Assembly: GCA_027485855.1 (NCBI GenBank)
Contig: JAIXQD010000019.1
Location: 146,256-210,255, forward strand
Direction: 5' to 3'
DNA length: 64,000 bases
Source of the DNA: Rickettsiales bacterium
GTDB lineage: Bacteria; Pseudomonadota; Alphaproteobacteria; G027485855
A program made the translations under genes and the position numbers. A model generated the notes under the pieces. The model ran no database searches. It was not told the origin of the DNA and saw only the letters and a list, made by a program, of their open reading frames with translations. Positions within the stretch are counted from its first letter, which is position 1; every line of letters starts with the position of its first letter. This document shows positions 15,917 to 32,072 of this stretch, one piece after another.

Positions 15917-16717
15917 ATGACTGAAGCCAGCCCCGCCCCCAAATTAGCCCCCGCATCTGAACCCAGCGCCGAAATTAGCCGCAAAGAGATTTTTGCGCTG
16001 CTCGCCGAGCTGCCACAAAACGGCACGGCGCCAATAAACGGCGAACTGCCCGAGCTGCAACGTTGGCTGTTTGAACATAGCCTGCGCCCCAACGATATCG
16101 ATTGGCCAAGGCTGGCGCTTTATTTTGGTGCACATGGCACCGATGAAGCCAGTAAAAACAGCCAAGCCTTATTGCAAAATGCCGCCGCCGAAAATGGCGC
16201 CATTTATGCCGTGGCCAGCCAGCTTGAGGCCGATCTACGCCTTTACGAGCTTGATTTAGCCAAGCCCCATGCGGCTAACCCACCCGCTATGACTGAAGAT
16301 GCTGGCCTGCGCGCCATTAGCTACGGCATGCTTGCGGTTGAAAGCGGCCTACATATTATTGCGCTGGCCGCTGATGGCGACGGCACCGCCAAAGCCGCCC
16401 GCCGGCTTGAAGTGGCGCTGGCCACCAGCGATGATGGGCTAAGCACACTTTTTAGCCATGGCGGCACTGAAATTGCCGCGCTGTTTGGCGCCATGCTGGC
16501 CGCACGCTTGGCCAAAATACCCGTTGTGGCCGATGGCGATTCGGCCAGAGCCGCTTTGGCACTGCTGCAAAAAATGGCGCCACAAGCCAGTAGCCATGTG
16601 TGGCTGGTTGATGGCGGGCTTGGCCAACCCGGCTTATGGCATAATCACTACACGCCTTTATTGGCCAGTGCGGCGGCCATCAATATGCTACGCATTGCGG
16701 CCAGAATGCGTAGTTAA
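15917..16717 (+). CDS. Short CobT-like (nicotinate-nucleotide-DMB phosphoribosyltransferase-like) protein
   Basis: 266 aa, divergent from cobS. Has CobT-like blocks (ALYFGAHG, AALFGAMLAARLAKIPVVADG) but is shorter than canonical CobT. Confidence 0.5.
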   Translation: MTEASPAPKLAPASEPSAEISRKEIFALLAELPQNGTAPINGELPELQRWLFEHSLRPNDIDWPRLALYFGAHGTDEASKNSQALLQNAAAENGAIYAVASQLEADLRLYELDLAKPHAANPPAMTEDAGLRAISYGMLAVESGLHIIALAADGDGTAKAARRLEVALATSDDGLSTLFSHGGTEIAALFGAMLAARLAKIPVVADGDSARAALALLQKMAPQASSHVWLVDGGLGQPGLWHNHYTPLLASAAAINMLRIAARMRS

Positions 16718-17161
16718 ATGCGCGGTTAAATGCGCCTGCAAAGCGGCTTGTTGCTTATCGGGCGCATAACGCCATAGCTCGAATGCGGGCGGGCGGGTGC
16801 GCCACAACATCGCTCCTTGCTCGGTCAGTTTTTGCGCCACAACGTCATTGCCGGTAAAAACAAAATGCCGCAAGCCATGGTGCAAACAAGCCATAACCGC
16901 ACCGGCAAAATCAGCACAATCAATTATCAGCGGCACTCTGTGCAAGCGCGGCTGCAAAGCGGCAAACCACAAAGCACCAAGGCTTTGTCCAGCACCAATA
17001 TCGCTGAGCAAAGCTAAGGGCGGCGCTGTCTCATGCGTGACAGCAGCCACCACACACTCGGCCTCGGCCAAAGTGCGAAAAGCGATAAAGCGCGCTGCGT
17101 TATTTGGCAGCGGCCATGGCGGCTGCGGTGTCGAGCATGCGGTTGGAGAAGCCCCATTCAT
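16688..17161 (-). CDS. Hypothetical protein (start uncertain; the annotated 5' end overlaps the gap stop)
   Basis: 157-aa ORF with no motif I recognise. Confidence 0.3.
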   Translation of the reverse strand: MNGASPTACSTPQPPWPLPNNAARFIAFRTLAEAECVVAAVTHETAPPLALLSDIGAGQSLGALWFAALQPRLHRVPLIIDCADFAGAVMACLHHGLRHFVFTGNDVVAQKLTEQGAMLWRTRPPAFELWRYAPDKQQAALQAHLTAHLTTHSGRNA

Positions 17162-18107
17162 TATCGTACCAGCTCAGCACGCGCACTAAACGCCCGTCAA
17201 CCACTTTAGTTTCATTAAGCGCAAAAATGCTTGAATGCGCATCATGGTTGAAATCGGTGCTGACCAGCTCTTCGCGGTAGCAAGCTAAAATGCCGCGCAA
17301 ACTGCCCTTGGCTGCGGCCTCGATAGCATTGTTAATGGCCTCAATGCTGGTATCTTTGGCGGCGACAAACTTAAAATCAACCACCGACACATTAGGCGTT
17401 GGCACCCTGATAGCCGTGCCATCGAGCTTGCCTTGCAGAGCCGGCAAAACCTTGCCAACGGCCTTGGCCGCACCAGTTGAGGTTGGAATCATGTTTAATG
17501 CTGCCGCGCGCGCCCGATGCAAATCGCTATGCATGGTATCAACAATGCGCTGATCGCCTGTGTAACTATGAATAGTAGTCATAAAGCCGCGCTCGATGCC
17601 AACCGCCGCATGCAACACGCTGGCGACAGGGGCCAAGCAATTTGTGGTGCAAGACGCATTAGACACCACCAAATGCTGCGCCGTAAGCGCCGTATGGTTG
17701 ACACCATAAACCACAGTAAGATCTTCCTCGGTGGCGGGGGCCGAAATCAGCACTTTTTTGGCGCCAGCGGTTATATGCTTGCCTGCATCGGCTTTTTTGG
17801 TGAAGCGGCCAGAACACTCAAAGGCAATATCAATTTTATGCTGGCCCCATGGCAATTTTTCGGGATCGTTTATCTGATAGGCTTTAATGCTGCGACCATT
17901 GAGCAGCAGCGCATCGGCCGTGGCGCTCACCTCACCCGCAAAGCGACCATGCACAGAATCATATTTCAGCAAATGGGCGTTGGTGTGGGTGTCGGCCAAA
18001 TCATTGATGGCCACAACTTCTATATCGGTGCGGCCGCTTTCAGCTAAAGCCCGCAACACCAAACGACCAATGCGACCAAACCCATTTATTGCGACACGTA
18101 GACTCAT
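17100..18107 (-). CDS. gap: Glyceraldehyde-3-phosphate dehydrogenase, type I
   Basis: Has NGFGRIGR (NAD binding), the SNASCTTNCLAP active site, and WYDNEWGFSNR. Confidence 0.97.
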   Translation of the reverse strand: MSLRVAINGFGRIGRLVLRALAESGRTDIEVVAINDLADTHTNAHLLKYDSVHGRFAGEVSATADALLLNGRSIKAYQINDPEKLPWGQHKIDIAFECSGRFTKKADAGKHITAGAKKVLISAPATEEDLTVVYGVNHTALTAQHLVVSNASCTTNCLAPVASVLHAAVGIERGFMTTIHSYTGDQRIVDTMHSDLHRARAAALNMIPTSTGAAKAVGKVLPALQGKLDGTAIRVPTPNVSVVDFKFVAAKDTSIEAINNAIEAAAKGSLRGILACYREELVSTDFNHDAHSSIFALNETKVVDGRLVRVLSWYDNEWGFSNRMLDTAAAMAAAK

Positions 18108-18116
18108 CGTAAACCC

Positions 18117-18533
18117 CTAGTTAGTGAAGTAATAATAACAACGAAAGCCGCACACCTCTTCGCTGCGCTGTTCGGCGCAACAAATCGGCCAATTGGCGGT
18201 GCCGGCCATGCCCTTTTTCTTAGGCTCGTAGGAACCTGGTAAAGCGCAGGCTTGATAGGCGCCCTCATATTGGAAATCGACAAAAATATCGGGCTTAAAG
18301 CCATAAATGATTTTTGCGCATTTGCCGGCCTCTTGCACCATAGCCTCGGGGTTTTCATAATCGGTGCAGTTAAAACTAAAGGGGCACGTAGCATCGCCCA
18401 AATTACTGGCGCGGTCACTAAAGGGTGAGATGCTGGTAAAATTAGCCGGCGGCGCTGGCCGCTGCTCGGTCTGCGCCATAGCTTGAGTAAAACCGCTGCA
18501 CAAAAAAACTAAAACAAAAAGAATAAAACGCAT
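18117..18533 (-). CDS. Small secreted Cys-rich protein (last gene of the pil/dot block)
   Basis: Has the signal peptide MRFILFVLVFLCSGFTQAMA and about 10 Cys in the mature part of about 118 aa. No recognisable family. Confidence 0.55.
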   Translation of the reverse strand: MRFILFVLVFLCSGFTQAMAQTEQRPAPPANFTSISPFSDRASNLGDATCPFSFNCTDYENPEAMVQEAGKCAKIIYGFKPDIFVDFQYEGAYQACALPGSYEPKKKGMAGTANWPICCAEQRSEEVCGFRCYYYFTN

Positions 18534-18545
18534 GGGTACATCCTG

Positions 18546-19916
18546 TTAGTTGGCGCGCTCATCACGCAAGGTCGCAATATCGGCCGCTTGTTGCTGCACC
18601 ATATGCCGCAGCTCGGCATTTTGTTGCGATAATTCGCGGATCGCTTCAATGACAGGCGCAATCAGATTGCCAATTTCAACGCCCAGCGTGCCGTTGGTAT
18701 CTATGGCGCGCACCAGCTCGGGGAAGGCTTTGGCCACATCTTGCGCAATCACGCCCATATCTGGCCTTTGCCCGTCTTTCCAAATATAGCTGACGCCCTT
18801 GATGGTCAGTAAGCGTGCTAAGGGCGAATTTATGTCTTCGATATTTTCTTTTAATCGGCCATCTGAGGTATAAACAAATGACGTCGCCTGCAAGGTGCCG
18901 GTAAAGGTGCCATCACCACCAGTAATTGTGCCAGCGGCCATGTTTATATTGCCGCCATTCGTGGCAATGTCGCCAGTATTAACAATGCCGCCATTGGCCA
19001 TGGTGAGCGCACCATTTATAATGGCATTACCACTGACATCGAGTGCGCGTGAGGCCACAGTGCCAGCATTAATAATGCGGCCATCTGCCGCGCTGTTCGA
19101 TTGCATATCGATATTGCCCGCTAAAGTAGAAATTGTGCCGCCATTGGTCAGAATGGGGCCGCCCGCCATGGTGATGCCATTGACGCCAGTAAAGAGTAAG
19201 GTTGTTTCCATAGTGTTGAGCGTTTGGGCTGGGTTATCGCTCACCTCATCGAGGCGGTGCAAATAACGCTGCGAGCTAAAGCCCAAATCAGGCGAGTAAA
19301 AACCCACACTCACCAACCGGCCGCTGATTGTGGCGGCCGCCACACCAAATTGTAAAGAGGCTACACAATAGCCGCTAAATGCACCGCTAATACTATCGGC
19401 CGCACAGCGCAGCGCGGGGTTGGCAAACATAGCGCCGCCCGCGGCACCCATTTGCGTTATCATGCTGCCGAGGCGCTGATCTTCGGGGATACCAAAGCCG
19501 GTGCCATTAACCGTGTAAACTAAAACATCAATACGCGTATCGGTGGTGTTATCCTGACGCCGAATAGCAATACGATAATCTTGCCCCTGCACATTGGTAT
19601 AGGTAAAACCAGGCGGCAAATAATTTTGCAAGGCCGCTGTTGTTTGTGCAGCATCTAAAACTATGGGTGCGGCCGTTGTGAAGCCAGCTGTCGCCACCAG
19701 CACGGTGTATTGCGCTTGAATATATGCCTCGGCCGCTCTGTGCACCATCATGTGCTGAGCGGCCATGGCGCTATCTTGCGCTTGGCGGCCCGCATTGGTG
19801 GTGAGCTGCAAAATAGAGGTAATCACCACGCCCGCCACCGCCAGCACAATGGCCATCTCGACCAACGAAAAACCCGCTTTGCTGAGCGCTAATTTGCTAT
19901 GCCAAAAAGCGCGCAT
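18546..19916 (-). CDS. pilV: PilV-position minor type IV pilin with beta-helical repeats and a tail-fibre intramolecular-chaperone (peptidase S74-like) C-terminus
   Basis: Prepilin N-terminus: SKAG|FSLVEMAIVLAVAGVV. Has a G/N/T/I-rich repeat core. The C-terminus is FVYTSDGRLKENIEDI...GVSYIWKD...GVIAQDV...LIAPVIEAIRELSQQN plus a coiled coil (about 18549-18885). Confidence 0.8.
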   Translation of the reverse strand: MRAFWHSKLALSKAGFSLVEMAIVLAVAGVVITSILQLTTNAGRQAQDSAMAAQHMMVHRAAEAYIQAQYTVLVATAGFTTAAPIVLDAAQTTAALQNYLPPGFTYTNVQGQDYRIAIRRQDNTTDTRIDVLVYTVNGTGFGIPEDQRLGSMITQMGAAGGAMFANPALRCAADSISGAFSGYCVASLQFGVAAATISGRLVSVGFYSPDLGFSSQRYLHRLDEVSDNPAQTLNTMETTLLFTGVNGITMAGGPILTNGGTISTLAGNIDMQSNSAADGRIINAGTVASRALDVSGNAIINGALTMANGGIVNTGDIATNGGNINMAAGTITGGDGTFTGTLQATSFVYTSDGRLKENIEDINSPLARLLTIKGVSYIWKDGQRPDMGVIAQDVAKAFPELVRAIDTNGTLGVEIGNLIAPVIEAIRELSQQNAELRHMVQQQAADIATLRDERAN

Positions 19917-20509
19917 TATGTGCCCCCATCAAGGATTGCCGCTTCGCCAGCTTCAAGCGGTGGTGTAAGCGTGATGCCGCTGACTTCTGATAAATCTATG
20001 TTGCTACTGAGCGCAAAGCCATTGCTGGCGGGGTCGTAGGCAAAAACATCCATGGTGAAGGCCGTGCCGGTATCTTCTAGCATGCCATATTGTACGCTAC
20101 GCCCCATGATACGCTCAAGCTCGCTGACTAAATCGCCACCCAGATATTGCGCAAAATTAGCTTGCGGCTCGCCGTTCGCATCAAGCGTGATAACATTGCT
20201 ATAAGTAAAAGTGTGCCGCGTGCCGCCGCGATTAAACGCCACCGAAAACCATAAATTATTATTGACCCCGCCCGGCCCATAAAGCGGCAAAATTAAAGCG
20301 GGGTCGAGCACTTGCACATCGCCTGGGTTAGCGACAATCACCGGATTTGCCCCAACGGCAGCCATGGCGGATTGATGCCAGCGCACCATTTGCTGGCCAT
20401 AAATTGTGGGTGGGTTAAGGCTTTGCCGCGCTAAAACATCGCTGGTGACTGTAACCAGCACGCCGCTGCTGATGGCAAGCAACAAAGCAATAAAAGCAAC
20501 TGCAAACAT
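19916..20509 (-). CDS. Membrane-anchored pilus-associated protein (possible non-canonical minor pilin)
   Basis: 197 aa with the N-terminus MFAVAFIALLLAISSGVLV. GGAGGG RBS upstream. Shares an ATGA-type 1-nt overlap with the pilV-like start. Confidence 0.5.
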   Translation of the reverse strand: MFAVAFIALLLAISSGVLVTVTSDVLARQSLNPPTIYGQQMVRWHQSAMAAVGANPVIVANPGDVQVLDPALILPLYGPGGVNNNLWFSVAFNRGGTRHTFTYSNVITLDANGEPQANFAQYLGGDLVSELERIMGRSVQYGMLEDTGTAFTMDVFAYDPASNGFALSSNIDLSEVSGITLTPPLEAGEAAILDGGT

Positions 20510-20611
20510 GCTTTATCCCTCCTGCCCGCCAAAAAATAAATGCCCAAAAATAAGCGCTCAAAAATATAAACTGGGCCCAAAAACTTTGCCCGATACCAAA
20601 ATATCAGCACA

Positions 20612-20652
20612 TAAGAAAAAGGCTCGCCACGCATAATATTGTGGCGAGCCTG
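20612..20652 (-). terminator. Hairpin plus T-run immediately after the major pilin gene
   Basis: On the minus strand: AGGCTCGCCAC-aatattatgc-GTGGCGAGCCT followed by TTTTTCTT. Confidence 0.6.
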
Positions 20653-20693
20653 ATAGTTTTACGCAACCAGCAATGCTGCCTTAACAGCAAAGC

Positions 20694-21305
20694 CTAGCGA
20701 ATAAAGAAGCGCCAAACCACATCAGCCGTTGCTGTGCCACAATCGGTGGCAATCGCAGCGGGGCTGAAGGCAGCATCAATAGCGGCTTGGTCGGCAAGAC
20801 CGGCTAAAACAATTTCAGCGCCTGTGCCTGCGGTAATACCAACAAGGCCCACATCGGCGCCAAGGTTGCGGGCGCGCGTGGCCAGCTCAATGCAAGCCGC
20901 ACCCGGAATGCCGGTCATGCTGACGGTGAACTCATTCACCGATGTGCCCGCATCAACCGAAAGCGTGGTAGCACCACCCCAAGCGGTGGTGGCGTTAGTG
21001 GCATCGACAATCATGTCGGCGGGGATAACCCGTGCCGCAATCATCGCCGCCGTATTAAGGCCGGCTGAAGTATTGGAGCCGGCATAAAGATTGCGCACGC
21101 CTTGCACAATTTGCAGCAGCTGCTGGTGACCTTTGGTTTCGCGCATATTTTCGTAAACGCTCGCGGCGGCAATCCAGATACCGCCGACAACCAAGCCAAC
21201 GATGGCCAGCACGATGGCCGCCTCAATGAGGTTAAAACCACGGCGCAGCAGCGACACCGATTTATCTTGGTTCTTCTGCAATTGAACACGAGACAGTAAA
21301 CGCAT
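20694..21305 (-). CDS. pilS: Type IVb major prepilin (PilS-like)
   Basis: Has a 23-aa basic leader ending RRG|FNLIEAAIVLAIVGLVVGG, and a C-terminal Cys pair (AACIEL...ATDCG) consistent with a D-region disulfide. Confidence 0.8.
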   Translation of the reverse strand: MRLLSRVQLQKNQDKSVSLLRRGFNLIEAAIVLAIVGLVVGGIWIAAASVYENMRETKGHQQLLQIVQGVRNLYAGSNTSAGLNTAAMIAARVIPADMIVDATNATTAWGGATTLSVDAGTSVNEFTVSMTGIPGAACIELATRARNLGADVGLVGITAGTGAEIVLAGLADQAAIDAAFSPAAIATDCGTATADVVWRFFIR

Positions 21306-21459
21306 AGCAGCCCCTCATCTAGTTGAATAAAAATCAATTGAAATTACGAATAGCATTATCGCCTGTTAGGGTAAATAAACCTTTAAGCCGTTGCTTGTCG
21401 ATTCATTATATTTATTACGCTATTGTTATGTGCTTTTTACGGCACGGCTAAGATATTGA
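21306..21459 (-). promoter_or_regulatory. AT-rich region upstream of pilS; candidate internal promoter
   Basis: 154-bp gap in an otherwise tightly packed operon. A minus-strand TATAAT lies at 21405-21410 and a GAGGGG RBS precedes the ATG. I found no convincing -35 element. Confidence 0.35.
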
Positions 21460-22536
21460 CTAAAACTTGCCGCCACCACCAGAGCTGAGTGTGGTGGTAA
21501 TGCCCACAATGCTGGATAGGGCCCAAGCAATAATGGCACCCACACAGCCCAAACCAACATAACGCACAATTTGGGCCTGACTGCGTAGTTTATCGATTTG
21601 CTCGCGCATCCACTCATCGGTGACTTTGCGCAGCACATCGGCCACATCCGAACGCTCGGACAGAATTTCTAAATCAAGTGCCAGCTGCGGGTCGGGGAAG
21701 TTGTAGTTGGTTTGCCGCAAAGCCTCACCTAAATTGCGCCCGCGCATCACTTCTTCGCGCGTGGCGGCAATGCGTTGCTTGAGCCACGGGTTAGCCTGCA
21801 CCTCGAGCACTTCTAAGGCACGCTTAAGCGACACTTGCGCTTGCAACAAAGCCGACATGGACAACAAAAACGCACTGCCCTGCCACAAGCGATACCATGA
21901 CCAAGGCGGGAACATATCAAACATCGCACGCACATGCCCGCGCCAAACCGGCATGAGCATGGCAAGGCCAACCATGAGGCCAATAACAAACACCAGCGTC
22001 AGCAAGCCCCATGAGCGAATATAATCGGACACACTGGCAAGGCTGCCCATGCTGGCAATCACTTGTGGTGGGGCCATTTGCCGCATTGGCTCAATCATAT
22101 TGACACCAAACAACCACAACACCGCCCCCAACAGCATCAGCATAAACACCGGATACCCGACGGCTTGAATAATAGCGCCCTTCATTTCTTTGCTGCGGTC
22201 GCCCATTTCAAGAATCTGTTGCATGGCCAGCGCAACTTGCCCCGCTTCTTCGCCCGCTTTTATCATGAACAACTCAGACAGCGGCACCCAGCCCACCATG
22301 GCTTCAGACAGGCTCTCACCCGCACGGTCACGCTCAAACCATTCTTTGAGCGCCAAAGCTGCGGCCTTGCGCGGATAGCGCCCGCGCTCGGTGACATTAT
22401 TGTAAAGCCGCTCAAGACAGCGCGACAGCGCCTCATTCATGGCCATCATGCCTTGCAGCTTGCGATAAATGCGAAAACGCTCGCTGCGATTAAGCCGAAA
22501 ACTGAGCTGCGCCAGACTGCGTGCCGTATCTACCAT
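21460..22536 (-). CDS. pilR: GspF/PilC-family platform protein (PilR-like)
   Basis: 358 aa with the GspF-type topology (three TM segments). Located downstream of the ATPase gene with a 7-nt overlap. Confidence 0.82.
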   Translation of the reverse strand: MVDTARSLAQLSFRLNRSERFRIYRKLQGMMAMNEALSRCLERLYNNVTERGRYPRKAAALALKEWFERDRAGESLSEAMVGWVPLSELFMIKAGEEAGQVALAMQQILEMGDRSKEMKGAIIQAVGYPVFMLMLLGAVLWLFGVNMIEPMRQMAPPQVIASMGSLASVSDYIRSWGLLTLVFVIGLMVGLAMLMPVWRGHVRAMFDMFPPWSWYRLWQGSAFLLSMSALLQAQVSLKRALEVLEVQANPWLKQRIAATREEVMRGRNLGEALRQTNYNFPDPQLALDLEILSERSDVADVLRKVTDEWMREQIDKLRSQAQIVRYVGLGCVGAIIAWALSSIVGITTTLSSGGGGKF

Positions 22537-24458
22537 GAACCCCCCATGCCTAGAAGGCTCTCAACATCTTTAAGGCCGCGATCGCTAATGAGTGGCCCCA
22601 GCTCAAACTCGGCATCTTGTGGGGCAACTTCGCCCTTACGAATTTTATAAAGCGCGTGACCGGCCATGGTAATACCATTAAGGCCATGCGGGCTAAGCCA
22701 GTATTTGCGCGCATCTTCCATGCGGTTTTCAGACAGCAGCGCCATCAGGCGCATATCGGTTTCAATCACCTCGGCCGCAATGGTGCGGCCCACCCGCCCC
22801 TTAAAACAATGGCGGCAGCCCTCAATATTAGGAAAAAATACCTCTGACAGATCGGGCTCGCGCAAGCGGTTGAGCGGGTCGGATAATTCATCGGCTTTGG
22901 GGTCGCGCTCGGCATCAAGCAAGGCCAGCGCGGCCCTGATACGGCGCGCCAAAGGATCAAGCTCGGGGCTATCGGCCACGGCTTTTTTAAGCGGAATGCG
23001 GCAATGCGGGCAAAGCTGACGCATGAGACGCTGACACATCATGCCTTTGACCAAATGATGGTCATAAACCAAATAAGGCTCTAGCCCCAAATCGCGCAGA
23101 CGCTGCGGCACCGCAATGGCCGAATAAACGTGCAAGGTGGTGTACACCTGCCGCCCCGTGAGCGCCAAACGAAACAGAAAATTCGCCGTGGTTAAATCGC
23201 GGGTTTCGCCCAACATCACAATATCGGGGTCAAGGCGCAAGGCCGAGCGCATAATTTCAATGAAGGTTTTTTCGCGCATTTCATCTTTAGCGCTGGCGGC
23301 CACGCCAATTTGCCGCGCCCCTAAAACGCCGCCTTCGGGCGGGTCTTCAATCATAAGGCAGTTCAATTGGTAATTGGTCTCGGCCATGCGCCGATTAAGC
23401 ATCACCCGCAAGGTGGTAGTTTTACCTTGGTTAACCGGGCCGGTAATAATGCGCATACCGCCCGGCGTGTTACGCAAGCTGCGCACCGCCTCCATTTGCT
23501 CGGGCAAAAAACCCAGCTGGTCAACATCGGCCGCCATAAAATTGGCCCCAAAAATATGCAGGCCATCATATTGCAAGCGCATATCAAGATAGCGCCCACC
23601 ATCAGCCAGCGGCATCCATTGGCAGCGCACGCTTAAAATACCATCGGGAAACTGAATAGCATCAAGGCCGCTTTGTGGCACCAGCATGGCCGCCATGGGC
23701 TCTAGCCAATTTGCGGTGGCGCCCGACTGCACCGATGAGTGCGAATAAACCGATGAGAGAAACTGGTCGCCCTCGCGCTGGGTCCAGGTTTCCCACAGGC
23801 GCAAGGCACCATCAACCCGAAACTCAACTTTGGTACGGCCGGCGCTGGCCTCGATGTGAATATCGTTGGCGCCAAACTCTTTGGCTTTTTGCAAAGTCTC
23901 ATTTATTTTACGGCGAACCGAGTTATCATCTTGTTTGCTTGATGAGACGGCACGCTCGGCATAAAAATAGGCCTGCCGAATAATATCGGGCGTCACATAG
24001 GTTGGGTCATTAACCCGAAAACCCTGCCGCCGCGCCGACACCGCAACCGAAGTAATCAGCGGCGAGTTTTTATGGCTTTCTGACACCAGCCACATGCCAC
24101 TATCGAACAACACGCAAAGACCGCGAGAGTCGGGTGCAATTTTGAGCGGCCCATTGGGCGAGGTTAAAACCTGCCCCACAAAAATAATGCGCTTATTGCC
24201 ACCGCCATCGGTGGTCATTTCCTCGGCGGCGCGGTCTGGCTCGGCGACGGGCGCGGCGGCCTCGATGGCGGCTTGTTCTTTGGTTGGCTGTTCTTTGTTA
24301 TCTTTATTGGGATTATTTTTATTGCCGGCGCCGGCCAATGCAGGATTCTTTTTGCGCTCGCCGCTGTTGCTACTGGCTTTTTTTGGGTTAAGCGCGGCCT
24401 TAGCTGATGCCTCGCCACTCATGAGATTGCTCAGTTTTTGCATCAACCCATCAAACAT
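22530..24458 (-). CDS. pilQ: GspE/PilB-family assembly ATPase (PilQ-like in R64 nomenclature)
   Basis: Has Walker A GPVNQGKTTT, DPDIVMLGETRD, and the tetracysteine CPHC...CRHC. The N-terminus is K/N/A-rich and low-complexity. Confidence 0.9.
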   Translation of the reverse strand: MFDGLMQKLSNLMSGEASAKAALNPKKASSNSGERKKNPALAGAGNKNNPNKDNKEQPTKEQAAIEAAAPVAEPDRAAEEMTTDGGGNKRIIFVGQVLTSPNGPLKIAPDSRGLCVLFDSGMWLVSESHKNSPLITSVAVSARRQGFRVNDPTYVTPDIIRQAYFYAERAVSSSKQDDNSVRRKINETLQKAKEFGANDIHIEASAGRTKVEFRVDGALRLWETWTQREGDQFLSSVYSHSSVQSGATANWLEPMAAMLVPQSGLDAIQFPDGILSVRCQWMPLADGGRYLDMRLQYDGLHIFGANFMAADVDQLGFLPEQMEAVRSLRNTPGGMRIITGPVNQGKTTTLRVMLNRRMAETNYQLNCLMIEDPPEGGVLGARQIGVAASAKDEMREKTFIEIMRSALRLDPDIVMLGETRDLTTANFLFRLALTGRQVYTTLHVYSAIAVPQRLRDLGLEPYLVYDHHLVKGMMCQRLMRQLCPHCRIPLKKAVADSPELDPLARRIRAALALLDAERDPKADELSDPLNRLREPDLSEVFFPNIEGCRHCFKGRVGRTIAAEVIETDMRLMALLSENRMEDARKYWLSPHGLNGITMAGHALYKIRKGEVAPQDAEFELGPLISDRGLKDVESLLGMGGSW

Positions 24459-24526: not shown

Positions 24527-25462
24527 CTAATTTTTATCAAGGGTAACGGTTTGCTCTTTGCCCTTACTATTGCGCAAAACTACGCTATCGGCAGAGATGG
24601 ACACAATTTGCTGACCATCAGCCAAACTATCGCCAATGCCGACATTTTTGCGCTCGCCGCCACTGCTGACGGTGGCCCGCAGCGAACCTTCAGCCCCTGA
24701 AATGCGCTCAATTTCAACTTTGCCCTCGGGGTTGCGGCGCGGCGAAATGGTGGGCGCAATATTTGCCGATGAATTAAAAGACGGCGAAATATTGGTGGAA
24801 ACGCTCTGCGGATTTGATGGTGCAGGCGGTGGCGGTAAGGGCGTAAGCGAACTGGCTGGCACTGCCGGAATGCCCGATAAGCCACCCGCGCCACCAAAAG
24901 AGGGGCGAGATTTTTGCTCACGCGCATCACGAATTTTGCTGATCTCAGTAAGTTGTTTTTCAATACTGTTCAAAATCTCAAGGCGCTTTAAGGCGTCTTC
25001 AGCGGCGGCGATATCATCAAGGCTGATGCGCGATTGGTCGTTGCGCAGGCGCTCGAGCACTTTATTGACGGCAGCAATATCTTCGGCCGAGCGCGCTTTA
25101 CTGCCGCCAGCTTGAGCGGTTGCGCTGCCGGTATTAGCACTGCCAGCATTCGGCATGCTGGGCACAGCCCCTTGCGTTGCCAAAGGCTTGCCCGCGCCAT
25201 CAAGCAACACAGCTGAGGCGCTGTTGCTGGCGCTATTATTTGTGCTTGTTACTGTGCTGGGGCTGGCGCTATCGGCAGTTGAATTTTTTTCATCGGTCAG
25301 GCTTGGTGCAGGCGGCGGCAATTTTGCTTGCGGCACCTGGGCTAAAGCCGCGCTGCTCAAAAACGCCAGCAGCGTACAACCACCCAACATTAAAATGAGT
25401 TTATGGCCAATAAGTTGATGGCCAATGAGTTTATGGCTGGGTATGGGTTTAGCGCATTTCAT
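24527..25462 (-). CDS. pilP: PilP-like pilus biogenesis protein
   Basis: Has a signal/TM segment, a long Ser/Ala/Pro linker, and a C-terminal beta domain (RATVSSGGERKNVGIGDSLADGQQIVSISADSVVL). Start chosen at MKCAKP. Confidence 0.6.
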   Translation of the reverse strand: MKCAKPIPSHKLIGHQLIGHKLILMLGGCTLLAFLSSAALAQVPQAKLPPPAPSLTDEKNSTADSASPSTVTSTNNSASNSASAVLLDGAGKPLATQGAVPSMPNAGSANTGSATAQAGGSKARSAEDIAAVNKVLERLRNDQSRISLDDIAAAEDALKRLEILNSIEKQLTEISKIRDAREQKSRPSFGGAGGLSGIPAVPASSLTPLPPPPAPSNPQSVSTNISPSFNSSANIAPTISPRRNPEGKVEIERISGAEGSLRATVSSGGERKNVGIGDSLADGQQIVSISADSVVLRNSKGKEQTVTLDKN

Positions 25463-26702
25463 AAATAACCCCTTCTGTCTTCCACGAACCATTAGACCAG
25501 CTGATGCTTTCAATCACAAAGCCGGGTAGGCCCGCATAGCCTTGCCACTGGTGCCATGGTGCAGTGTCGCTGTTTAAGGTAACTTTTCTCTTAACCCATG
25601 GCGGCGGCGGGGGTGGAGCCGGCTGCCCTTGCCTTGGTGGCGGGGGGGGCGGCTCGACCACAGGTTTAAGCGCGGCCCGCCAGTTGCGCCGCAGGGCAAT
25701 TTGCGTGACATCATCTTTGTTTAAAATAACTTCGGTGCCGCGACGAGTGAGGTTTTCTAAGGTAAATTGGCTATTGGCACGCGATTGGCTATCATCCATG
25801 CGGGCATTGGGCGGCACAATGGCCACGCCCGATGTACGCGACCATTCAACGCTTAAAGTGCGCCCCGCACAGGAAAAAGTGGCCAAATTCCACCCCGCCA
25901 TAACCACCGGCACATTTTTCATGGCTTCGCGGCAGGCAGTCATAAAAATTTCAGGCGATGGGGCATCTTCCCAAACACGCTTGGGCGGCTCGGGCAAATT
26001 GGCCTGTGGCAACAACGTAGAGGGCACAGTTTGCAGCCCTTCGCGCAGCCTTTGCTCGCGGGCCTTTTGGCTATTTCTGCGCTCAAGCGCCACTTGTGCG
26101 GCATCGCGCTCGCGTTGCCATTGCAGGCCAGCATAAGCCAGCCCACCCACCACCAAAACGCCCAGCAGCACAAACAAAATGATATTGCGCGGTATGGTAA
26201 CAGGACGCAAAATACCGCTCGACCGGCCTTGCAACAAGAGCGAGAGCGGCACGGGATCGGCGCCCGGAATGGTCCAGCTATCGGGCGCATAAATACGCTG
26301 CAAGCCGCCCAAGCCAATTTCGTGCATGAGACGCTCACGCGCCTCACGCTCATCGGCATAAAGATGGTCGCCATCGGGCGCAATCAGGTCATCGCGAACA
26401 ACGCAAACCCAATAGCCTTCATCTAAACGAAAAGCGCCAACCCACGAGCCGGGCTGCTGGTCGGCCATGCTGGCAGCACCCGTGGGCATGCCTTGGCGAT
26501 GCCCATAGGATTTTTGCCCTAAACCAAATTGTGCCACCCGGCCACTTTTGGTGGCACCCCTTACGGCAAAATAATCGGCTGGTTGCCCTTGCTGACGGGC
26601 GGCCTCACGCGCGGCTTGTGCCACGCGCCCTGATGGGCTGGGCTGCCAATAAAGGCCAACCGCAAATTTGCGCCGCCCAATGCTGACGACACCGCCCGCC
26701 AT
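25449..26702 (-). CDS. pilO: PilO (type IVb, PilO2-like) protein
   Basis: Has the N-terminus IGRRKFAVGLYWQPS characteristic of R64/PAPI-1 PilO, one central TM helix, and a poly-Pro segment. Confidence 0.7.
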   Translation of the reverse strand: MAGGVVSIGRRKFAVGLYWQPSPSGRVAQAAREAARQQGQPADYFAVRGATKSGRVAQFGLGQKSYGHRQGMPTGAASMADQQPGSWVGAFRLDEGYWVCVVRDDLIAPDGDHLYADEREARERLMHEIGLGGLQRIYAPDSWTIPGADPVPLSLLLQGRSSGILRPVTIPRNIILFVLLGVLVVGGLAYAGLQWQRERDAAQVALERRNSQKAREQRLREGLQTVPSTLLPQANLPEPPKRVWEDAPSPEIFMTACREAMKNVPVVMAGWNLATFSCAGRTLSVEWSRTSGVAIVPPNARMDDSQSRANSQFTLENLTRRGTEVILNKDDVTQIALRRNWRAALKPVVEPPPPPPRQGQPAPPPPPPWVKRKVTLNSDTAPWHQWQGYAGLPGFVIESISWSNGSWKTEGVIYEMR

Positions 26703-26705
26703 CGC

Positions 26706-28340
26706 CTAGCCTCGCGATTCAGCAGATGGCTGACCGATATCGACCTCTTGCGGCGTAATCGAGATAAACAACATGCGCCGCGATTCGGTATTAGCATTTC
26801 TGCCGCCCAACAACATGTTAAACGGGCTGCCAACGCCCGAGCGGTCTTGGGTGATGTCGTTTTGATCGACGCCGCTCAGCACCAAAGTTTGCCCACTTTG
26901 CAACATGGCTTGCTGCACAAAAATGCGGCTGGCGGTTTCGGGCAACTGAATAGACGAGCTATTTTGACCCGTGCCCGATGAAAAGGGCTCAATGCCCAGC
27001 AAATCAATCACCGACAGCGAATATTGCAGCAAAATACGGCCATCATCCAAAATGCGCGGCGTGAGCTGCAAAGAATAACCCTGCCGAATAATGCCAGGCT
27101 CAAGTGACGTGCTTTGGAAACTTTGCGAAGTGCTGGTTTCAACACTGGCAAGATAAGCGCGGTCAACACCAATGCGCCGCGTGGCGGGGCGGTTATTCAG
27201 TGTGGTTACGGGCAATTGCGCCACGCGTGACACTTTGCCCTTCGTGGCCAAAGCACGCAATACCGCATCACTGCCCGTGGTCGCGCGGTTGCGCCCCAGA
27301 ATTGTCACGCCAAGCCCGCCCGCGCGTTCGGCGGCTGAAACGCCAGGGATAGTTGCGCCCGTCCACTCAAAGCTGGGGAAGTTGCTGGTTTGCCGCACAA
27401 TGGCGTTTAGGTCGAAGTTGAAATCGACATCGTCGTTGAGATCAAGGCTAAACACCTCAACATTAATGGCCACCTGCTTGGTGAGCTGCACATTTTGGTC
27501 GTCAATAAAACTGGCCACCTGGCGCATGATTTCGGGCGTGGTGATAACCGTAACTGTACCCGTAGACGGCGCCACCTGGAACGAACCCACGCCGCCCAAA
27601 ACGGCCTGCATGGTTTTTTCAAGCTCGCTCCAAAACTCAATTTTAGCGGATAAATCGGCGCTTTGTTTAATGCCGCCACCATTATTACTGGCCGTGGTGC
27701 CGCCGCCTTGCACGCCGCCCTCAAGCTCGCCGGTTAAGCCATCGGTGATTTCAACCGTGCCGGGCATGGAGTAAATGGTAAAAATGCGCGTTTCGAAGCG
27801 CGAGAAAACAATGGCTGCGCCATCATAGCGCCACGACAGACCAAAATTACCCGCCACACGCTCGAGCAAGCCCGACAGCGGGCCTTGCCATTGTATGGGC
27901 ATGGCATCGTTATTATTGGCCGCACCCGCGGCTGGACGTGAAGCACCACCCACAGCGCCCGCTCTTGGGGCGGCGGCCGCAGTATCGGCGCCATCAGCGA
28001 GGCGCACCGGAATGCGGCTTTGCTGGGCGATTTCGTCGGCAATTTCGCGCAAAGTTAATGGCTTTGCCGAAGACAGCACAAACGCATTGGTTGTTTCAAA
28101 GCGCTCGGGCAGGGCTTGGCCACGGCGCGTGCGCACCGCTTTTTGCCCCGTCCACACCTGATCGGTGATTTGCAGCGAATCATGGCGCACGATTTCGGCG
28201 GGGCGCTTGGCGGTATCAACTTCGGTCACGGCCGTTTTTTGCCGCTGCTCAAAATCGCGGTCAAGGCGCTCAGTGTTGCAGGCCGCCAAAGTTGCAGCGG
28301 CCAGAACCAGCGATAGCCCCAGTGATAGGATTTTTTTCAT
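26706..28340 (-). CDS. pilN: Secretin lipoprotein (PilN-like)
   Basis: Begins MKKILSLGLSLVLAAATLAAC (lipobox) and has a C-terminal secretin domain (LVLSGVDQNDITQDRSGVG...LFISITPQ). GGAGAG RBS lies before the ATG at 28340. Confidence 0.85.
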   Translation of the reverse strand: MKKILSLGLSLVLAAATLAACNTERLDRDFEQRQKTAVTEVDTAKRPAEIVRHDSLQITDQVWTGQKAVRTRRGQALPERFETTNAFVLSSAKPLTLREIADEIAQQSRIPVRLADGADTAAAAPRAGAVGGASRPAAGAANNNDAMPIQWQGPLSGLLERVAGNFGLSWRYDGAAIVFSRFETRIFTIYSMPGTVEITDGLTGELEGGVQGGGTTASNNGGGIKQSADLSAKIEFWSELEKTMQAVLGGVGSFQVAPSTGTVTVITTPEIMRQVASFIDDQNVQLTKQVAINVEVFSLDLNDDVDFNFDLNAIVRQTSNFPSFEWTGATIPGVSAAERAGGLGVTILGRNRATTGSDAVLRALATKGKVSRVAQLPVTTLNNRPATRRIGVDRAYLASVETSTSQSFQSTSLEPGIIRQGYSLQLTPRILDDGRILLQYSLSVIDLLGIEPFSSGTGQNSSSIQLPETASRIFVQQAMLQSGQTLVLSGVDQNDITQDRSGVGSPFNMLLGGRNANTESRRMLFISITPQEVDIGQPSAESRG

Positions 28341-28439
28341 ATTGACTCTCCGCTCCACCAAAACCCCGAACCCCCGAAAGAAGCCCCAAAGAAACCCACT
28401 ATAAAACGCACCACAAAGCGCACCATAAAGTTCTGCGGC

Positions 28440-29501
28440 CTAACGGCCATACTGGTTACCGCGCGTGGTAATCACCAACACTGCTTGTCCAGCGGTGCTG
28501 TTTTTATGCAGGCGGCCCATTGGTTGTGGCTCAGCATCAGCTAAGCCTGCCAGCATTTGCCGCAACGCATCTTCATAAGAGCCGGTATAGGCCGAGGTGG
28601 CTTGTAGCGGATAGTCATATTCAGCGTCCCAGCTGAGCTCGACGCCGGCTTTATCCGACCAATTTTGCAACACGCTTTTTAACGTATCGCCGCGCTCGGC
28701 CCGCCACACATATAAAGCTGTGCTGCTGTCGCCCTCAATGGTGGTGGGGCTGGACAGCGCCGCATTTTCGCCCTCGATCAAGAGCGGGGCGGCGTCGCCC
28801 TCAATCACGGCGGCGCCATTAAGCGCATCGGTGCCACTTATTGGCATAGGATTATTTTCATAGGCGGGCAAGACGCCCAAAATGCCCGAGGTGCTGCCGC
28901 CCATAGTCGCTTTAGGCGTAAGCGTCATGGGTGTGGCATCAGGCCCTGTGGCGCTGAGCTGGTCATAGCTGGTGGCGGCCGCGCGTGGTGGCACAAAGGC
29001 CTCACCCGCGCGGGCAATATTGACCATGCCGGTGGCGAAGCTGGCCGACAAACCCACAGATGACAGGCTTTGTTGCAAAACATTTTGCCAGGATTGCCCA
29101 CCACGCCAGCTGACCAGCGTGCCCAAATCAACCGACTCGGCGACCGAAAAACCATGATCGGGCGGCACCACTTGCCGCAACATGGCGCCCAGTGGAATGC
29201 GATTGGCAAAACCCTCTAAGATGGCGCCATCGCTGGCAACACCACTAGCCGAAAGCGCAGGCGCAGTAAGTGGCTGCGGCACAACAGCCATGCTGGGTGA
29301 TGACATAACTGGCGGTAAATTATTTTGCGACCCAGCTAAAGGTAGAGGCTGCGGCAAACGACCAGAGCTGGCATTATTTTGCGCATCAGGCGGCACTAAT
29401 TTAAAACCCGCTTGCGCTGGTGCCACAAGGCAAAGACAAAATAACGCCGCAACAGCACCGCTTAAAAATTTTTGTTTTATGTACATTTTGAAAACAGGCA
29501 T
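28440..29501 (-). CDS. pilL: PilL-like protein with a TcpQ-type C-terminal domain
   Basis: Has a signal peptide and the C-terminus LYVWRAERGDTLKSVLQNWSDKAGVELSWDAEYDYPL, which resembles the PilL/TcpQ family. The start could be 29543, 29501 or 29486. Confidence 0.7.
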   Translation of the reverse strand: MPVFKMYIKQKFLSGAVAALFCLCLVAPAQAGFKLVPPDAQNNASSGRLPQPLPLAGSQNNLPPVMSSPSMAVVPQPLTAPALSASGVASDGAILEGFANRIPLGAMLRQVVPPDHGFSVAESVDLGTLVSWRGGQSWQNVLQQSLSSVGLSASFATGMVNIARAGEAFVPPRAAATSYDQLSATGPDATPMTLTPKATMGGSTSGILGVLPAYENNPMPISGTDALNGAAVIEGDAAPLLIEGENAALSSPTTIEGDSSTALYVWRAERGDTLKSVLQNWSDKAGVELSWDAEYDYPLQATSAYTGSYEDALRQMLAGLADAEPQPMGRLHKNSTAGQAVLVITTRGNQYGR

Positions 29502-29731
29502 GACCACTCCGGCAAAATGTAAAACGCTGTCGCTTGCAAGCACCAGTAAAAGCTGATTCGTGCATGAAAGCAGTTAATATATTGTTTTGACAGAACAGTG
29601 GCTGCCAGACAATGGCTAAAAGCCTTTAGCCCCGATACAGATGTCGCTCGTGACTTAACTGCACCATGCAGCGGGCAAAACCGGCAATCAGAGAGCTGGC
29701 CAGAAAACTGCCCGCAAAAAAGCCGCACAGT

Positions 29732-30004
29732 TTATTTTGCCTGATAATCATACCACCTGCGGATTCTTTGGTGCCGGTGTGCTGGTCGTCGTGCGCCCAA
29801 AAGCCGGCGTCGCACAGCCCGCCATGCGGCATCATAAGCAAGACCGTTTCGCTCGAATAAATAAAATAACAAAGTGCAGAGGCACGCAAAAATAAGAGTG
29901 TAAAGCCTTAAATGCAAAACCAGCAGCAAAAACGGCACGGCTGCGCGCGCATCAAAGCCCAAAAAGCGCACCGGTTTCATACTGTTGCGCCAATGAACAT
30001 CCAT
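29732..30004 (-). CDS. icmT: IcmT/TraK-family small membrane protein
   Basis: 90 aa: HWRNSMKPVRFLGFDARAAVPFLLLVLHLRLYTLIF...FERNGL. This matches the IcmT pattern. Located directly after dotB. Confidence 0.72.
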   Translation of the reverse strand: MDVHWRNSMKPVRFLGFDARAAVPFLLLVLHLRLYTLIFACLCTLLFYLFERNGLAYDAAWRAVRRRLLGARRPAHRHQRIRRWYDYQAK

Positions 30005-31179
30005 CAGTCTAACTCCGCCGAGAGGCCCTTGGATAACAGCAAATACCAGCGCCGCTCGATAAGCCCCTGCTCGAAGGCATTACGGGCGCTGCGCTCCATG
30101 GGGCAGCCCCAATCGGGCACAACGCGCTGAATTTCGTAGGTCCAGCGGTCGATGGGCATATCCAGCATTTTTTCGCGCAGGTTATCGTCAAAAACCATAT
30201 ATTCACGCAGGCCGATGCGCCCGCCACCAATTTTGGGCACCAAGGTTTGCGTCACTACCAAGCGCAAAGTTTCCATCAGCGCCATGGCGCGCTCAAGCCG
30301 CTCGGCTGGCTCAAACACCGAAATCATCCGCCGCACAGTTGCGGCAACGCCAATGGTGTGTGCGGTTGAATAAACTGTGTGGCCCGTTTGCGCGGCCTCA
30401 ATGGCGGCCGACACGGTTTCACGGTCGCGGGCCTCACCCACCATAATAATACTGGGCTTACGCCGCAAAGCATTGCGTACACCGGCAGCAAAATTGGGCA
30501 AATGGCGCGGGATTTCGCTTTGCGAAACAAGACTGCGCGGGCTGCTGATGCTGTCATAAACATATTCGATGGGGGCTTCGTAAGTCAGCAGCTTGCCGCA
30601 GCCTTGCGGGCGCTCAACCAACATACGACAGCCCGCGGCCAATAAAGTGGTTTTGCCGCTGCCCGTGGGCCCCGTGACTAAAACCAAACCTTGCCGTGGC
30701 GCCCAATTTTCGATGATGTCTTTTTCAATACCTAAATCCAATAAAGTGGGCGGCAGATTAGGCAAGGTGCGCAAGGTGACTTGCACAGCATCTCTGCCAC
30801 GCGACAACACCGCCGTGATATTCACCCGAAAGCGGATGCGCGTATTGCGGTCGGTTTTTATTTCGTAGGATAAATCAAGGTCGCGGCCCGAGGCCAGTTT
30901 GGCCAAAGCATCTGGCCCATAAAGCCGATTGAGCAAGGCGGCCATATCCGCACTATCGAGCGGGCGGCGTGTGCCAACCCGCAAGCCGCCATCAACTTCA
31001 ATCATGAGGGGGCGGTCTGACTGAATGTTGATATCGGAGGCGCGCTCGCGCACCGACCACAGCAACATACTATCAACGAGATCTTCGCGTAAACGCGGCG
31101 GCTCATCGGGCCAGAAAACGCCGGGCGCTGGCTCGATATCGAGGTCTTTTGGGTCTATTGTTGTGGGGCCGGCAGCCAA
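30004..31179 (-). CDS. dotB: DotB/TraJ-type (PilT-like) hexameric ATPase
   Basis: Has Walker A GPTGSGKTT, RFRVN, MVGEARDRET and STAHT. Follows the dotD-dotC-dotB synteny seen in Legionella and IncI plasmids. Confidence 0.85.
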   Translation of the reverse strand: MAAGPTTIDPKDLDIEPAPGVFWPDEPPRLREDLVDSMLLWSVRERASDINIQSDRPLMIEVDGGLRVGTRRPLDSADMAALLNRLYGPDALAKLASGRDLDLSYEIKTDRNTRIRFRVNITAVLSRGRDAVQVTLRTLPNLPPTLLDLGIEKDIIENWAPRQGLVLVTGPTGSGKTTLLAAGCRMLVERPQGCGKLLTYEAPIEYVYDSISSPRSLVSQSEIPRHLPNFAAGVRNALRRKPSIIMVGEARDRETVSAAIEAAQTGHTVYSTAHTIGVAATVRRMISVFEPAERLERAMALMETLRLVVTQTLVPKIGGGRIGLREYMVFDDNLREKMLDMPIDRWTYEIQRVVPDWGCPMERSARNAFEQGLIERRWYLLLSKGLSAELD

Positions 31180-32072
31180 CGCTCGCTCCGCGTGTTGAAT
31201 TGTGGCTGACCCGTGATGGTCACAGCGCGATCACCCACACGCATTTCAGTGCCATCACCCGACACGCCGCGCTCTTCTAACAGCGCAAAAGGCTCGCTAA
31301 TCATGCCTTGCTGCAATAATTCGCGGTAACGCACCATGCCGACAAAGTCGGCGGTCAAGCGGTCGAGATCGGCTTGAAAAACCTCATCGGCCTGAGTGCG
31401 GCCAGCTTCCCAGCCTTGGCGCAGATATTTTTGCCAAAGAATTTTTTCCTCGGCATTTTTGGGCAGCAATAAATCGGGCGGCGGCAAAACCTTACCCCAA
31501 TCGCGCTCTAAATAGAGACGCCAATCACGGGCGGCCGTGACAATACGCGCTTGCCGATTAATTTTAAGCACGCGCTCGGCCGTGGCTGCCGCTTGCCCGC
31601 CCGCTGTGACTAACACGGCACGCTGCGCCTCACTTACTACGGGCGGCTCAATGAGCAAGCCAGATGGCGCTTGCACCAAAAGCTGCCGAAAATCGAAGGT
31701 GCGGCTGAGCGCGCTATCTTGCTCGGCTAAGCGGCGCTGAATTTCGAAGGTGCGCAACGCCAAGCCAGCCCGTGCGCCATAAGATAAAGCGGCCTCGCGC
31801 AGGCCATCGGTGCGGATTTGCAAACCCATAGTGTTGCCAATCGTGCTTTCATCGGTGCCGCGGCGCTCAAGATTAAGCATATCAACCAGCGCAGGCGGTG
31901 GCGGTGAAGGCTCAACCACATTGGGCGTATCAAGAACATCTTGTGCCTGTGCCACCATGGGCGCGGCAAACAGTAAAGCCGCCAGCAGCAGCGCCAGAAT
32001 AGTTGGCTGCAGTTTTTTAGAGGCTGTTTTTGGCAACATAGCGAATTTCAATAGCATTGCGGTTGGGGTCAA
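31155..32072 (-). CDS. dotC: DotC/TraI(IncI)-family outer-membrane-associated protein
   Basis: About 300 aa with a signal peptide (LLAALLFAAPMVAQA). The call rests on size and its position between dotD and dotB. The true start is probably an internal Met (32057 or 32039). Confidence 0.7.
   Translation of the reverse strand: MTPTAMLLKFAMLPKTASKKLQPTILALLLAALLFAAPMVAQAQDVLDTPNVVEPSPPPPALVDMLNLERRGTDESTIGNTMGLQIRTDGLREAALSYGARAGLALRTFEIQRRLAEQDSALSRTFDFRQLLVQAPSGLLIEPPVVSEAQRAVLVTAGGQAAATAERVLKINRQARIVTAARDWRLYLERDWGKVLPPPDLLLPKNAEEKILWQKYLRQGWEAGRTQADEVFQADLDRLTADFVGMVRYRELLQQGMISEPFALLEERGVSGDGTEMRVGDRAVTITGQPQFNTRSERWLPAPQQ

Follow-up and report, generated by a model that had tools for sequence, protein, structure and literature searches.

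The 64,000-nucleotide stretch of Rickettsiales bacterium DNA analysed here (hereafter the window; contig JAIXQD010000019.1, positions 146,256 to 210,255) carries on its minus strand, at 18546-19916, a gene whose product combines a PilV-family type IV pilin with a segment related in sequence to the ends of phage tail fibres and with a C-terminal intramolecular chaperone of the S74/ICA type. We interpret this protein, called PilV-S74 below, as the minor pilin in the PilV position of a type IVb pilus of R64 type, associated with a Dot/Icm-type (type IVB) secretion or conjugation system. In this interpretation, to which we attach a probability of roughly 0.6, the three-part fusion of pilin, fibre and ICA domain would work through the assembly steps proposed in the last section, and the protein probably builds a three-stranded, phage-like adhesive pilus tip. 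The argument draws on the identities of the domains, on residues invariant across a large family, on the operon context and on homology to both PilV and phage fibres. The gene and its parts are the following.

18546-19916, minus strand: PilV-family prepilin gene with a C-terminal tail-fibre/S74 module; intact open reading frame with an ATG start, 456 residues, 47.8 kDa
19872-19916, minus strand: leader peptide, residues 1-15 (MRAFWHSKLALSKAG), with predicted removal by a prepilin peptidase at G15↓F16 (TIGR02532)
19197-19871, minus strand: pilin module, residues 16-240, with an α1 helix at 18-68, a β-sheet head to about residue 207 and a PilV-type linker, Y-L-x-R...L-N-T-M-x-T
18867-19196, minus strand: fibre segment, residues 241-350, with Gly/Asn/Thr/Ile-rich 7-residue repeats (I-x-x-x-G-G-x); a predicted trimeric β-helical stalk ending at T350↓S351
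18549-18866, minus strand: S74/ICA intramolecular chaperone, residues 351-456, with S351, K356, a β 'cutter' core and a putative coiled-coil helix at 415-455

The original prediction, made from the sequence of the window, had placed at this position a minor pilin with a textbook class III signal and a phage-type chaperone. Its coordinates are exact, the gene lying on the minus strand, all the peptide strings that it cited are present, and its interpretation was supported wherever it could be tested in silico. What it missed is the more informative frame, namely that the protein is a PilV homologue encoded in an R64-type operon beside type IVB genes. A plus-strand reading of 18546-19916 was rejected, that frame being riddled with stop codons.

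Pilin half and kinship with PilV

The identification of PilV-S74 as a type IV pilin is supported by its signal motif, by Glu+5, by the modelled α1 helix and head, and by the pilus operon in which the gene is found. Its N-terminus reads MRAFWHSKLALSKAG↓FSLVEMAIVLAVAG, a class III pilin signal with cleavage at G15↓F16 and with E20 as Glu+5, the latter being present in 110 of the 110 relatives carrying the pilin signal whose alignment provides all conservation figures given here. The NCBIfam profile TIGR02532 (IV_pilin_GFxxxE) matches it at 20.8 bits, above the cutoff of 16.3, and Pfam N_methyl at 19.9 bits, slightly under the cutoff of 21.2. An AlphaFold2 monomer model built on the same 110-sequence alignment (mean predicted local distance difference test, pLDDT, of 81) predicts in silico a helix at 18-68 and strands up to residue 207, with pLDDT mostly >90 over 20-207; in the model the long α1 packs on the β-sheet head, as in the lollipop fold of pilins. 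When the family profile was compared with PDB sequences, the N-terminus and α1 matched solved type IV pilins, TcpA among them. A pseudopilin of a type II secretion system was also considered and rejected: the weak GspH/GspG matches are limited to the N-terminal helix and remain far below cutoff.

Regarding the kind of pilin, homology to the tip adhesin PilV extends over the first ~330 residues. In a tblastn comparison with 72,556 plasmids, residues ~10-326 aligned at 24-30% identity, with E-values down to 1e-8, to genes annotated 'shufflon system plasmid conjugative transfer pilus tip adhesin PilV' from Pseudomonas, Ralstonia, Cupriavidus, Acetobacter, Citrobacter and Salmonella. Residues 351-442 separately matched 'tail fiber domain-containing' plasmid genes, and the pilin+S74 fusion itself was not found on these plasmids, 0 of the 90 matching records covering >=80% of the query or both halves. 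In a pairwise comparison with the PilV of Ralstonia pRMAN01 (512 residues, with Shufflon_N), the similarity (E=1e-14) spans the pilin head, the Y-L-x-R...L-N-x-M-x-T linker and the first Gly-rich repeats; the S74 domain is absent from this protein, the only canonical PilV checked. Within the family, the linker residue R221 is invariant and N234 is found in 99 of 110 sequences.

PilV-S74 thus resembles the PilV of IncI1/IncI2 (R64, TP114) and PAPI-1 thin pili by its 24-30% identity over ~300 residues, a stretch that takes in the YLxR...LNTMxT linker and the first Gly-rich repeats, and by its slot, which follows PilS in a PilL-N-O-P-Q-R-S cluster with I-type/Dot-Icm-type transfer genes alongside. 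In IncI plasmids, the C-terminal part of PilV is a switchable, recipient-specific adhesin (PMC9045228). Where shufflon PilVs carry such switchable ends, PilV-S74 ends with a fixed fibre+S74 module (241-456): unlike them, it has a C-terminus that appears, from its sequence, to consist of a phage fibre and a chaperone of the self-cleaving type, and its gene is chromosomal, in an uncultivated alphaproteobacterium-like host. The repeats detected at 16500-21500 are all short and weak, none being convincing in either direct or inverted orientation, and there are no repeated recombination sites and no cassettes for alternative C-termini. As PilV proteins without a shufflon do exist, for instance in PAPI-1, this excludes the shufflon subtype here and not the PilV family.

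Fibre segment and intramolecular chaperone

Between the linker and the chaperone, residues 241-348 have a strongly biased composition (G 19%, A 14%, T 13%, I 11%, N 11%) and contain exact 7-residue repeats (I248/255/262/269 and I317/324/331/F338), 7 also being the best self-similarity offset. The length of this region, from the PilV linker to the Ser, varies from 75 to 242 residues across the family, as expected for a repeat stalk. Homology of residues 241-350 to the C-terminal ends of phage tail fibres is supported by sequence comparison: the 241-456 module matches 302 phage genome records, 37 of which cover >=80% of it, and reaches 33.5% identity with cyanomyophage 'baseplate wedge initiator' genes. 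Moreover, 22 PHROG families match, nearly all of them 'tail', the matches beginning at residues 217-351 of PilV-S74 and always involving the extreme C-terminal end of the phage profile.

The same ~200-residue fibre+S74 module is carried by many non-pilin bacterial proteins with ordinary signal peptides (e.g. P0091, P0098, P0128). It is likewise very common without a pilin N-terminus in GTDB genomes (loci L001-L080), in hosts belonging to the Bdellovibrionota, the Candidate Phyla Radiation (CPR; Gracilibacteria, SR1, Paceibacterota), the DPANN archaea and the Bacteroidota; among the matches these are often short proteins with ordinary signal peptides, which look like non-phage uses of the chaperone at the cell surface.

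The C-terminal domain is assigned by profile, by fold and by comparison with PDB sequences. Peptidase_S74 (PF13884) matches residues 351-403 with E=1.9e-15 and 57.3 bits, for a cutoff of 22, over profile positions 1-58 of 58, and an S-D-G-R-L-K motif begins at S351. In the AlphaFold2 model, residues 351-456 are predicted with confidence (pLDDT 89-97), including a 40-residue terminal helix at 415-455 with pLDDT >90. Foldseek searches of the PDB with this model returned the MyRF ICA domain (7dc3; E=4e-5, probability 1.0, template modelling score on the target 0.63) and the intramolecular chaperone of the endoNF endosialidase (3gw6; probability 0.96-0.99), and the family profile retrieved from the PDB the end of the phage S16 gp37 fibre (6f45, 3e-18), a tail fibre (8jov, 5e-16), MyRF (7dc3, 2e-9) and the GA-1 neck appendage chaperone (3gud, 1e-5). 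The terminal helix has a conserved a/d heptad core (419/422/426/429/N433/436/440/443), L429, N433 and L436 each being kept in at least 107 of 110 sequences and N433 in 107. The dyad S351/K356 has the i/i+5 spacing of known ICA domains, its equivalence being established by hidden Markov model alignment to 7dc3 and 6f45.

ICA/S74 domains trimerise mainly through their C-terminal triple coiled coil and help the upstream triple β-helix to fold; their Ser-Lys dyad then cuts just N-terminal to the Ser, in the trimer only, so that the chaperone is freed and a kinetically stable trimer is left (PMC8326128). Such dyads are S911/K916 in endoNF and S587/K592 in MyRF, in which the cut at P586↓S587 was located by mass spectrometry (PMC8326128). 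By its Pfam, fold and PDB-profile matches, its i/i+5 Ser-Lys dyad, its C-terminal heptad helix and its place at the protein end behind a repeat stalk, the domain of PilV-S74 resembles the MEROPS S74 domains of the phage K1F endosialidase, the GA-1 neck appendage, the T5 and S16 tail fibres and eukaryotic MyRF. Unlike in these proteins, the cargo is a membrane-anchored type IV pilin instead of a virion protein or a transcription factor, and the periplasm would have to be the site of folding, with the subunits tethered by their N-terminal helices. A cut at T350↓S351 is predicted to give a 34.4 kDa pilin-fibre and an 11.7 kDa chaperone.

For this part of the protein, the original prediction had proposed a chaperone in the C-terminal ~110 residues and, upstream of it, repeats rich in G, N, T and I. 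Both were borne out, the former by the agreement of the full-length Pfam match (57.3 bits against 22), the fold matches to 7dc3 and 3gw6 and the PDB profile search, the latter by composition, exact 7-residue repeats and homology to phage fibre ends. Its placement of the putative cut before the Ser agrees with the P586↓S587 site of MyRF.

A family with a conserved operon

PilV-S74 belongs to a sizeable, uncharacterised family. Word-indexed searches had given 3 (protein) and 5 (profile) relatives, and the resulting impression of an orphan was rejected when an exhaustive HMMER scan of 1.84 billion representatives, in which family members are counted as clusters at 50% identity, found dozens of end-to-end relatives (query ~10-445, 430-530 residues, 27-38% identity). 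At least 110 clusters share the pilin+S74 architecture. Eight residues are invariant in 110 of 110 sequences (E20, R221, S351, D352, K356, G388, Q392, P399); G15 is found in 107 and F16 in 105, and G15, F16, T17 and L18 are all >=90% conserved. A Pfam scan of 100 relatives detected Peptidase_S74 in all 100, N_methyl in 98 (E<=0.01) and Shufflon_N in 23. Recurrence of the two-domain layout on this scale, with its key residues unchanged, is far beyond chance. In databases these proteins are labelled 'tail fiber domain-containing protein', 'prepilin-type N-terminal cleavage/methylation domain-containing protein' or 'pseudopilin PulG', those with the first label coming from metagenome-assembled genomes (MAGs) assigned to Bdellovibrionales, Alphaproteobacteria and Pseudomonadota. 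When a genome collection was scanned with the family alignment, the best 80 matches were mostly S74-only (Bdellovibrio, CPR, Bacteroidota), with one full-length pilin+S74 locus, L022.

Searches of the literature for S74 or intramolecular chaperones together with pilins, PilV or type IV pili yielded no study of such a protein, with the exception of one survey. In their InterPro survey of modular pilins, Raynaud et al. (PNAS 2021; PMC8179133) list IPR012902-IPR030392, exactly the same domain pair in one protein, as the sixth most common architecture, with 29 proteins, and 7 further proteins with YadA-like head repeats between the pilin and S74 domains. The module is read there as a 'predicted peptidase belonging to S74' that might bring a new function to the pilus (PMC8179133); the survey makes no link to PilV, type IVB systems, trimerisation or self-removal and reports no experiments. 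The domain pair is hence already catalogued, whereas its PilV/type IVB identity, its reading as a chaperone-driven trimer and its conserved neighbours are undescribed in the searchable literature. The original prediction had presented a pilin using a phage chaperone as new and had suggested looking for co-occurrence of the prepilin motif with Peptidase_S74; this co-occurrence extends to at least 110 clusters, and the claim of novelty has to be moderated, the architecture being that of a large family listed in PMC8179133.

PilV-S74 is encoded by the last of the pilin genes in a minus-strand pilL-pilS type IVb operon with dotD-dotC-dotB-like genes adjoining, a layout that matches the thin-pilus region of IncI (R64). 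The neighbouring genes are listed below.

18117-18533, minus strand: small Cys-rich secreted protein of 138 residues, with a signal peptide and eight Cys, directly downstream of the pilin+S74 gene
19916-20509, minus strand: membrane-anchored partner of the ~195-residue type (197 residues), whose stop codon overlaps the pilin+S74 start codon by one base
20694-21305, minus strand: PilS-like/bundlin-type major pilin with the same cleavage site, G↓F-x-L-[VI]-E
21460-22536, minus strand: PilR/T2SSF platform protein
22530-24458, minus strand: PilQ/T2SSE ATPase
24527-25513, minus strand: PilP-like protein
25449-26702, minus strand: PilO
26706-28361, minus strand: PilN-family type IVb secretin (TIGR02520, 299.9 bits, above cutoff)
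28440-29543, minus strand: PilL/TcpQ-like protein
30004-31179, minus strand: DotB/TraJ ATPase
31155-32072, minus strand: TraI/DotC-like protein
32017-32514, minus strand: DotD
32935-33867: DsbG-like protein, beyond the dotD/C/B-like block, beside the gene with a VgrG3-like domain
33900-34394: lytic transglycosylase, likewise beyond that block and beside the gene with a VgrG3-like domain

Two of these neighbours recur with the family. The 197-residue partner has a single N-terminal hydrophobic helix, no pilin cleavage motif and no Pfam, NCBIfam or PHROG match; a ~195-residue gene occupies the same slot in the related loci L081 and L083, with weak similarity to the protein of the window (E=7e-5), and the L022 locus has, upstream of its PilV-S74, a match to the N-terminus of the L083 gene. 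On Ralstonia pRMAN01, a hypothetical gene of 159 residues precedes the canonical pilV. The 138-residue Cys-rich protein, also without Pfam, NCBIfam or PHROG match, is homologous (E about 1e-9) to 124-residue proteins flanking PilV-S74 in L081 and L083, where they are encoded on the opposite strand, and could be a secreted tip partner of the CofJ/TcpF kind. In both L081 and L083 the gene order is PilL - secretin - PilO - x - ATPase - platform - PilS - ~195-residue protein - PilV-S74, preceded in L081 by an IcmT gene, and it is kept in part in L022, a GTDB MAG. In L081 (12493-20262), the PilV-S74 operon is followed at once by a complete Tad/Flp locus (Flp, A24 peptidase, RcpC, secretin, CpaD, ATPase and two TadB/C-like genes); the two type IV filament systems stand side by side, and the A24 peptidase gene is found only in the Tad/Flp locus.

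The cluster is flanked by genes for PGK, SRP54, GAPDH, FlgI, a FliK-like protein and RsmB, the GAPDH gene being at most 0.5 kb from that of the Cys-rich protein, and the GC content is uniform at 54-55%; with such housekeeping flanks and composition, the cluster is chromosomal. The closest relatives of the SRP54 protein reach no more than 70% identity, and among those with names nearly all are from MAGs of Alphaproteobacteria. Elsewhere in the window, a 765-residue protein within the Dot/Icm-like block (35840-38137, minus strand) has a C-terminal domain resembling VgrG3 of type VI secretion systems (PF21277, 71 bits), which is unexpected for a type IVB cluster. Upstream of its gene, four successive open reading frames of 718, 419, 378 and 195 residues (38556-43613, minus strand) have no Pfam match, and the three largest no NCBIfam match either; they may be very divergent type IVB components. 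An open reading frame of 1613 residues (53684-58525, minus strand) has no Pfam or NCBIfam match at the thresholds used.

Proposed assembly of the pilus tip and its significance

We propose that the prepilin inserts in the inner membrane and would be cut at G15↓F16 by a prepilin peptidase encoded elsewhere. Three membrane-anchored subunits would then be joined in the periplasm by the C-terminal coiled coil of the chaperone, which would template the repeat segment into a trimeric β-helical fibre stable in sodium dodecyl sulphate (SDS). Once the trimer is correct, S351/K356 would cut at T350↓S351 and release the 11.7 kDa chaperone, the 34.4 kDa pilin-fibre staying behind with a new C-terminus as the distal end of the fibre. 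Finally, the pilin trimer would prime filament assembly. As type IV pili are extended at their base, a trimer of pilins formed beforehand and used to start the filament would be carried to its tip, the position occupied by CofB and TcpB. In phage fibres, as known for pb1 of T5, the receptor-binding end is exposed once the chaperone leaves. By analogy with these fibres and with PilV, the tip fibre may bind the surface of the target cell, probably a glycan or lipopolysaccharide, and hold this cell for the type IVB machine.

CofB is a trimeric type IVb pilus-tip pilin that docks the secreted protein CofJ (PMC8179133). Like CofB of enterotoxigenic Escherichia coli (CFA/III) and TcpB of Vibrio cholerae, PilV-S74 is a large type IVb minor pilin with extra C-terminal domains and a small secreted protein encoded nearby, and we propose by analogy that it also forms a homotrimer at the tip. 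TcpB provides the second precedent for a trimeric type IVb tip pilin, and neither CofB nor TcpB is known to have a self-cleaving chaperone. In PilV-S74, unlike in these two proteins, trimerisation is a deduction and would be driven by a removable chaperone.

Several points weigh against this proposal. Trimerisation, the β-helical fold, cleavage, location at the tip and the ligand have been inferred rather than directly observed. The AlphaFold2 monomer gives residues 210-345 no secondary structure, with pLDDT 48-76, a low confidence that fits an obligately intertwined trimer and equally fits disorder. An uncleaved trimeric tip bearing three chaperones might be too bulky for the secretin, and the order of events given above is a guess. 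No CofB or TcpB chain was found among the PDB sequence or fold matches, hence the tip-trimer analogy is functional only. PilV-S74 has no Pfam Shufflon_N (PF04917) match at E<=1, a domain that is present in 23 of the 100 family members scanned (best 3e-24). Two prepilins with the same cleavage motif, the PilS-like protein and PilV-S74, are encoded in the window, and no GxGD[VI]K prepilin peptidase motif was found in any open reading frame of >=100 residues in these 64 kb, nor any tblastn match to a Tad-type A24 prepilin peptidase; the enzyme must consequently be encoded elsewhere in the genome. R64 carries its own prepilin peptidase, PilU. Finally, the window yielded no relaxase or coupling protein, and the associated type IVB system may serve either conjugation or effector translocation.

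Other functions can be envisaged for this architecture. One of them, which we regard as unlikely and which is compatible with our model, makes the trimeric PilV-S74 tip an adapter that primes assembly and docks the Cys-rich secreted protein, the latter being the real ligand-binder or effector, as for CofB-CofJ and TcpB-TcpF. Homology of the 138-residue protein to proteins flanking PilV-S74 in L081 and L083 is in line with such a role, as is the CofB-CofJ precedent (PMC8179133). However, no homologue of the Cys-rich partner was detected beside the L022 gene, the partner gene lies on the opposite strand in L081 and L083, and no similarity of the protein to CofJ, TcpF or any family was found. In phage fibres that use an intramolecular chaperone, moreover, the fibre itself binds the receptor, which also counts against an adapter.

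Still less probable is a surface or secreted fibre outside any true pilus, for which the pilin-like N-terminus would be an anchor or export signal and the pilus machinery, or a short pseudopilus, would push out or anchor the fibre. The occurrence of fibre+S74 behind ordinary signal peptides in many non-pilin bacterial proteins, and the database name 'tail fiber domain-containing protein' of family members, would suit this explanation. Yet Glu+5 and G↓FTLxE are invariant or nearly so, indicating filament assembly, the protein is homologous to the PilV pilin head, and the position of the gene after that of the major pilin is the same in four loci.

We consider it very improbable that the pilus displays the S74 domain as a protease cutting external substrates. 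This is the 'peptidase activity' suggested by Raynaud et al. (PMC8179133), and the catalytic Ser and Lys are indeed invariant in the family. Nevertheless, characterised S74/ICA domains are reported to cleave their own chain only, within the trimer (PMC8326128); after the self-cut the domain would be detached from the pilin, and it is always extreme C-terminal behind a fibre-like repeat, as in phage fibres. A prophage remnant or functionless chance fusion, which the similarity of the C-terminal half to phage tail proteins might suggest, is effectively refuted by the intact open reading frame, by at least 110 diverged relatives (27-38% identity) in which both halves and the catalytic residues are preserved, by conserved synteny and by uniform GC content without phage genes nearby, the lack of phage neighbours also having led us to reject a prophage tail gene.

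The family of PilV-S74 is best described as a variation on the PilV/type IVb tip-pilin theme that has borrowed a phage fibre together with its self-removing chaperone. It connects two literatures that had remained unlinked, on phage receptor-binding fibres and on conjugative or secretion-associated pili, and corrects the sole published reading of this architecture as a 'peptidase activity'. Under the public label 'tail fiber domain-containing protein', a part of a pilus goes unrecognised, and prophages could be over-counted. The field is actively asking what makes tip minor pilins trimeric and by what means they nucleate filaments; a removable chaperone offers a type IVb tip pilin a concrete and testable route to the trimer. 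The finding also suggests that a phage-type module can determine which cells a type IVB system targets. We see about an even chance that, in uncultivated Proteobacteria, the pili of type IVB secretion or conjugation systems bear a true receptor-binding fibre of phage type, which a chaperone that removes itself would fold in the periplasm while the pilins are tethered to the membrane, and which would be a fixed alternative to the shufflon for setting the range of targets. In that case, phages and pilus-bearing transfer systems would share a common stock of receptor-binding modules that can be exchanged, the C-to-N trimerisation driven by the chaperone would be the event that nucleates the pilus, and the ~195-residue and Cys-rich neighbours would be dedicated parts of the tip complex. 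For engineering the recipient range of conjugative delivery vectors, a trimeric tip that cleaves itself and is stable in SDS would make a handy scaffold.

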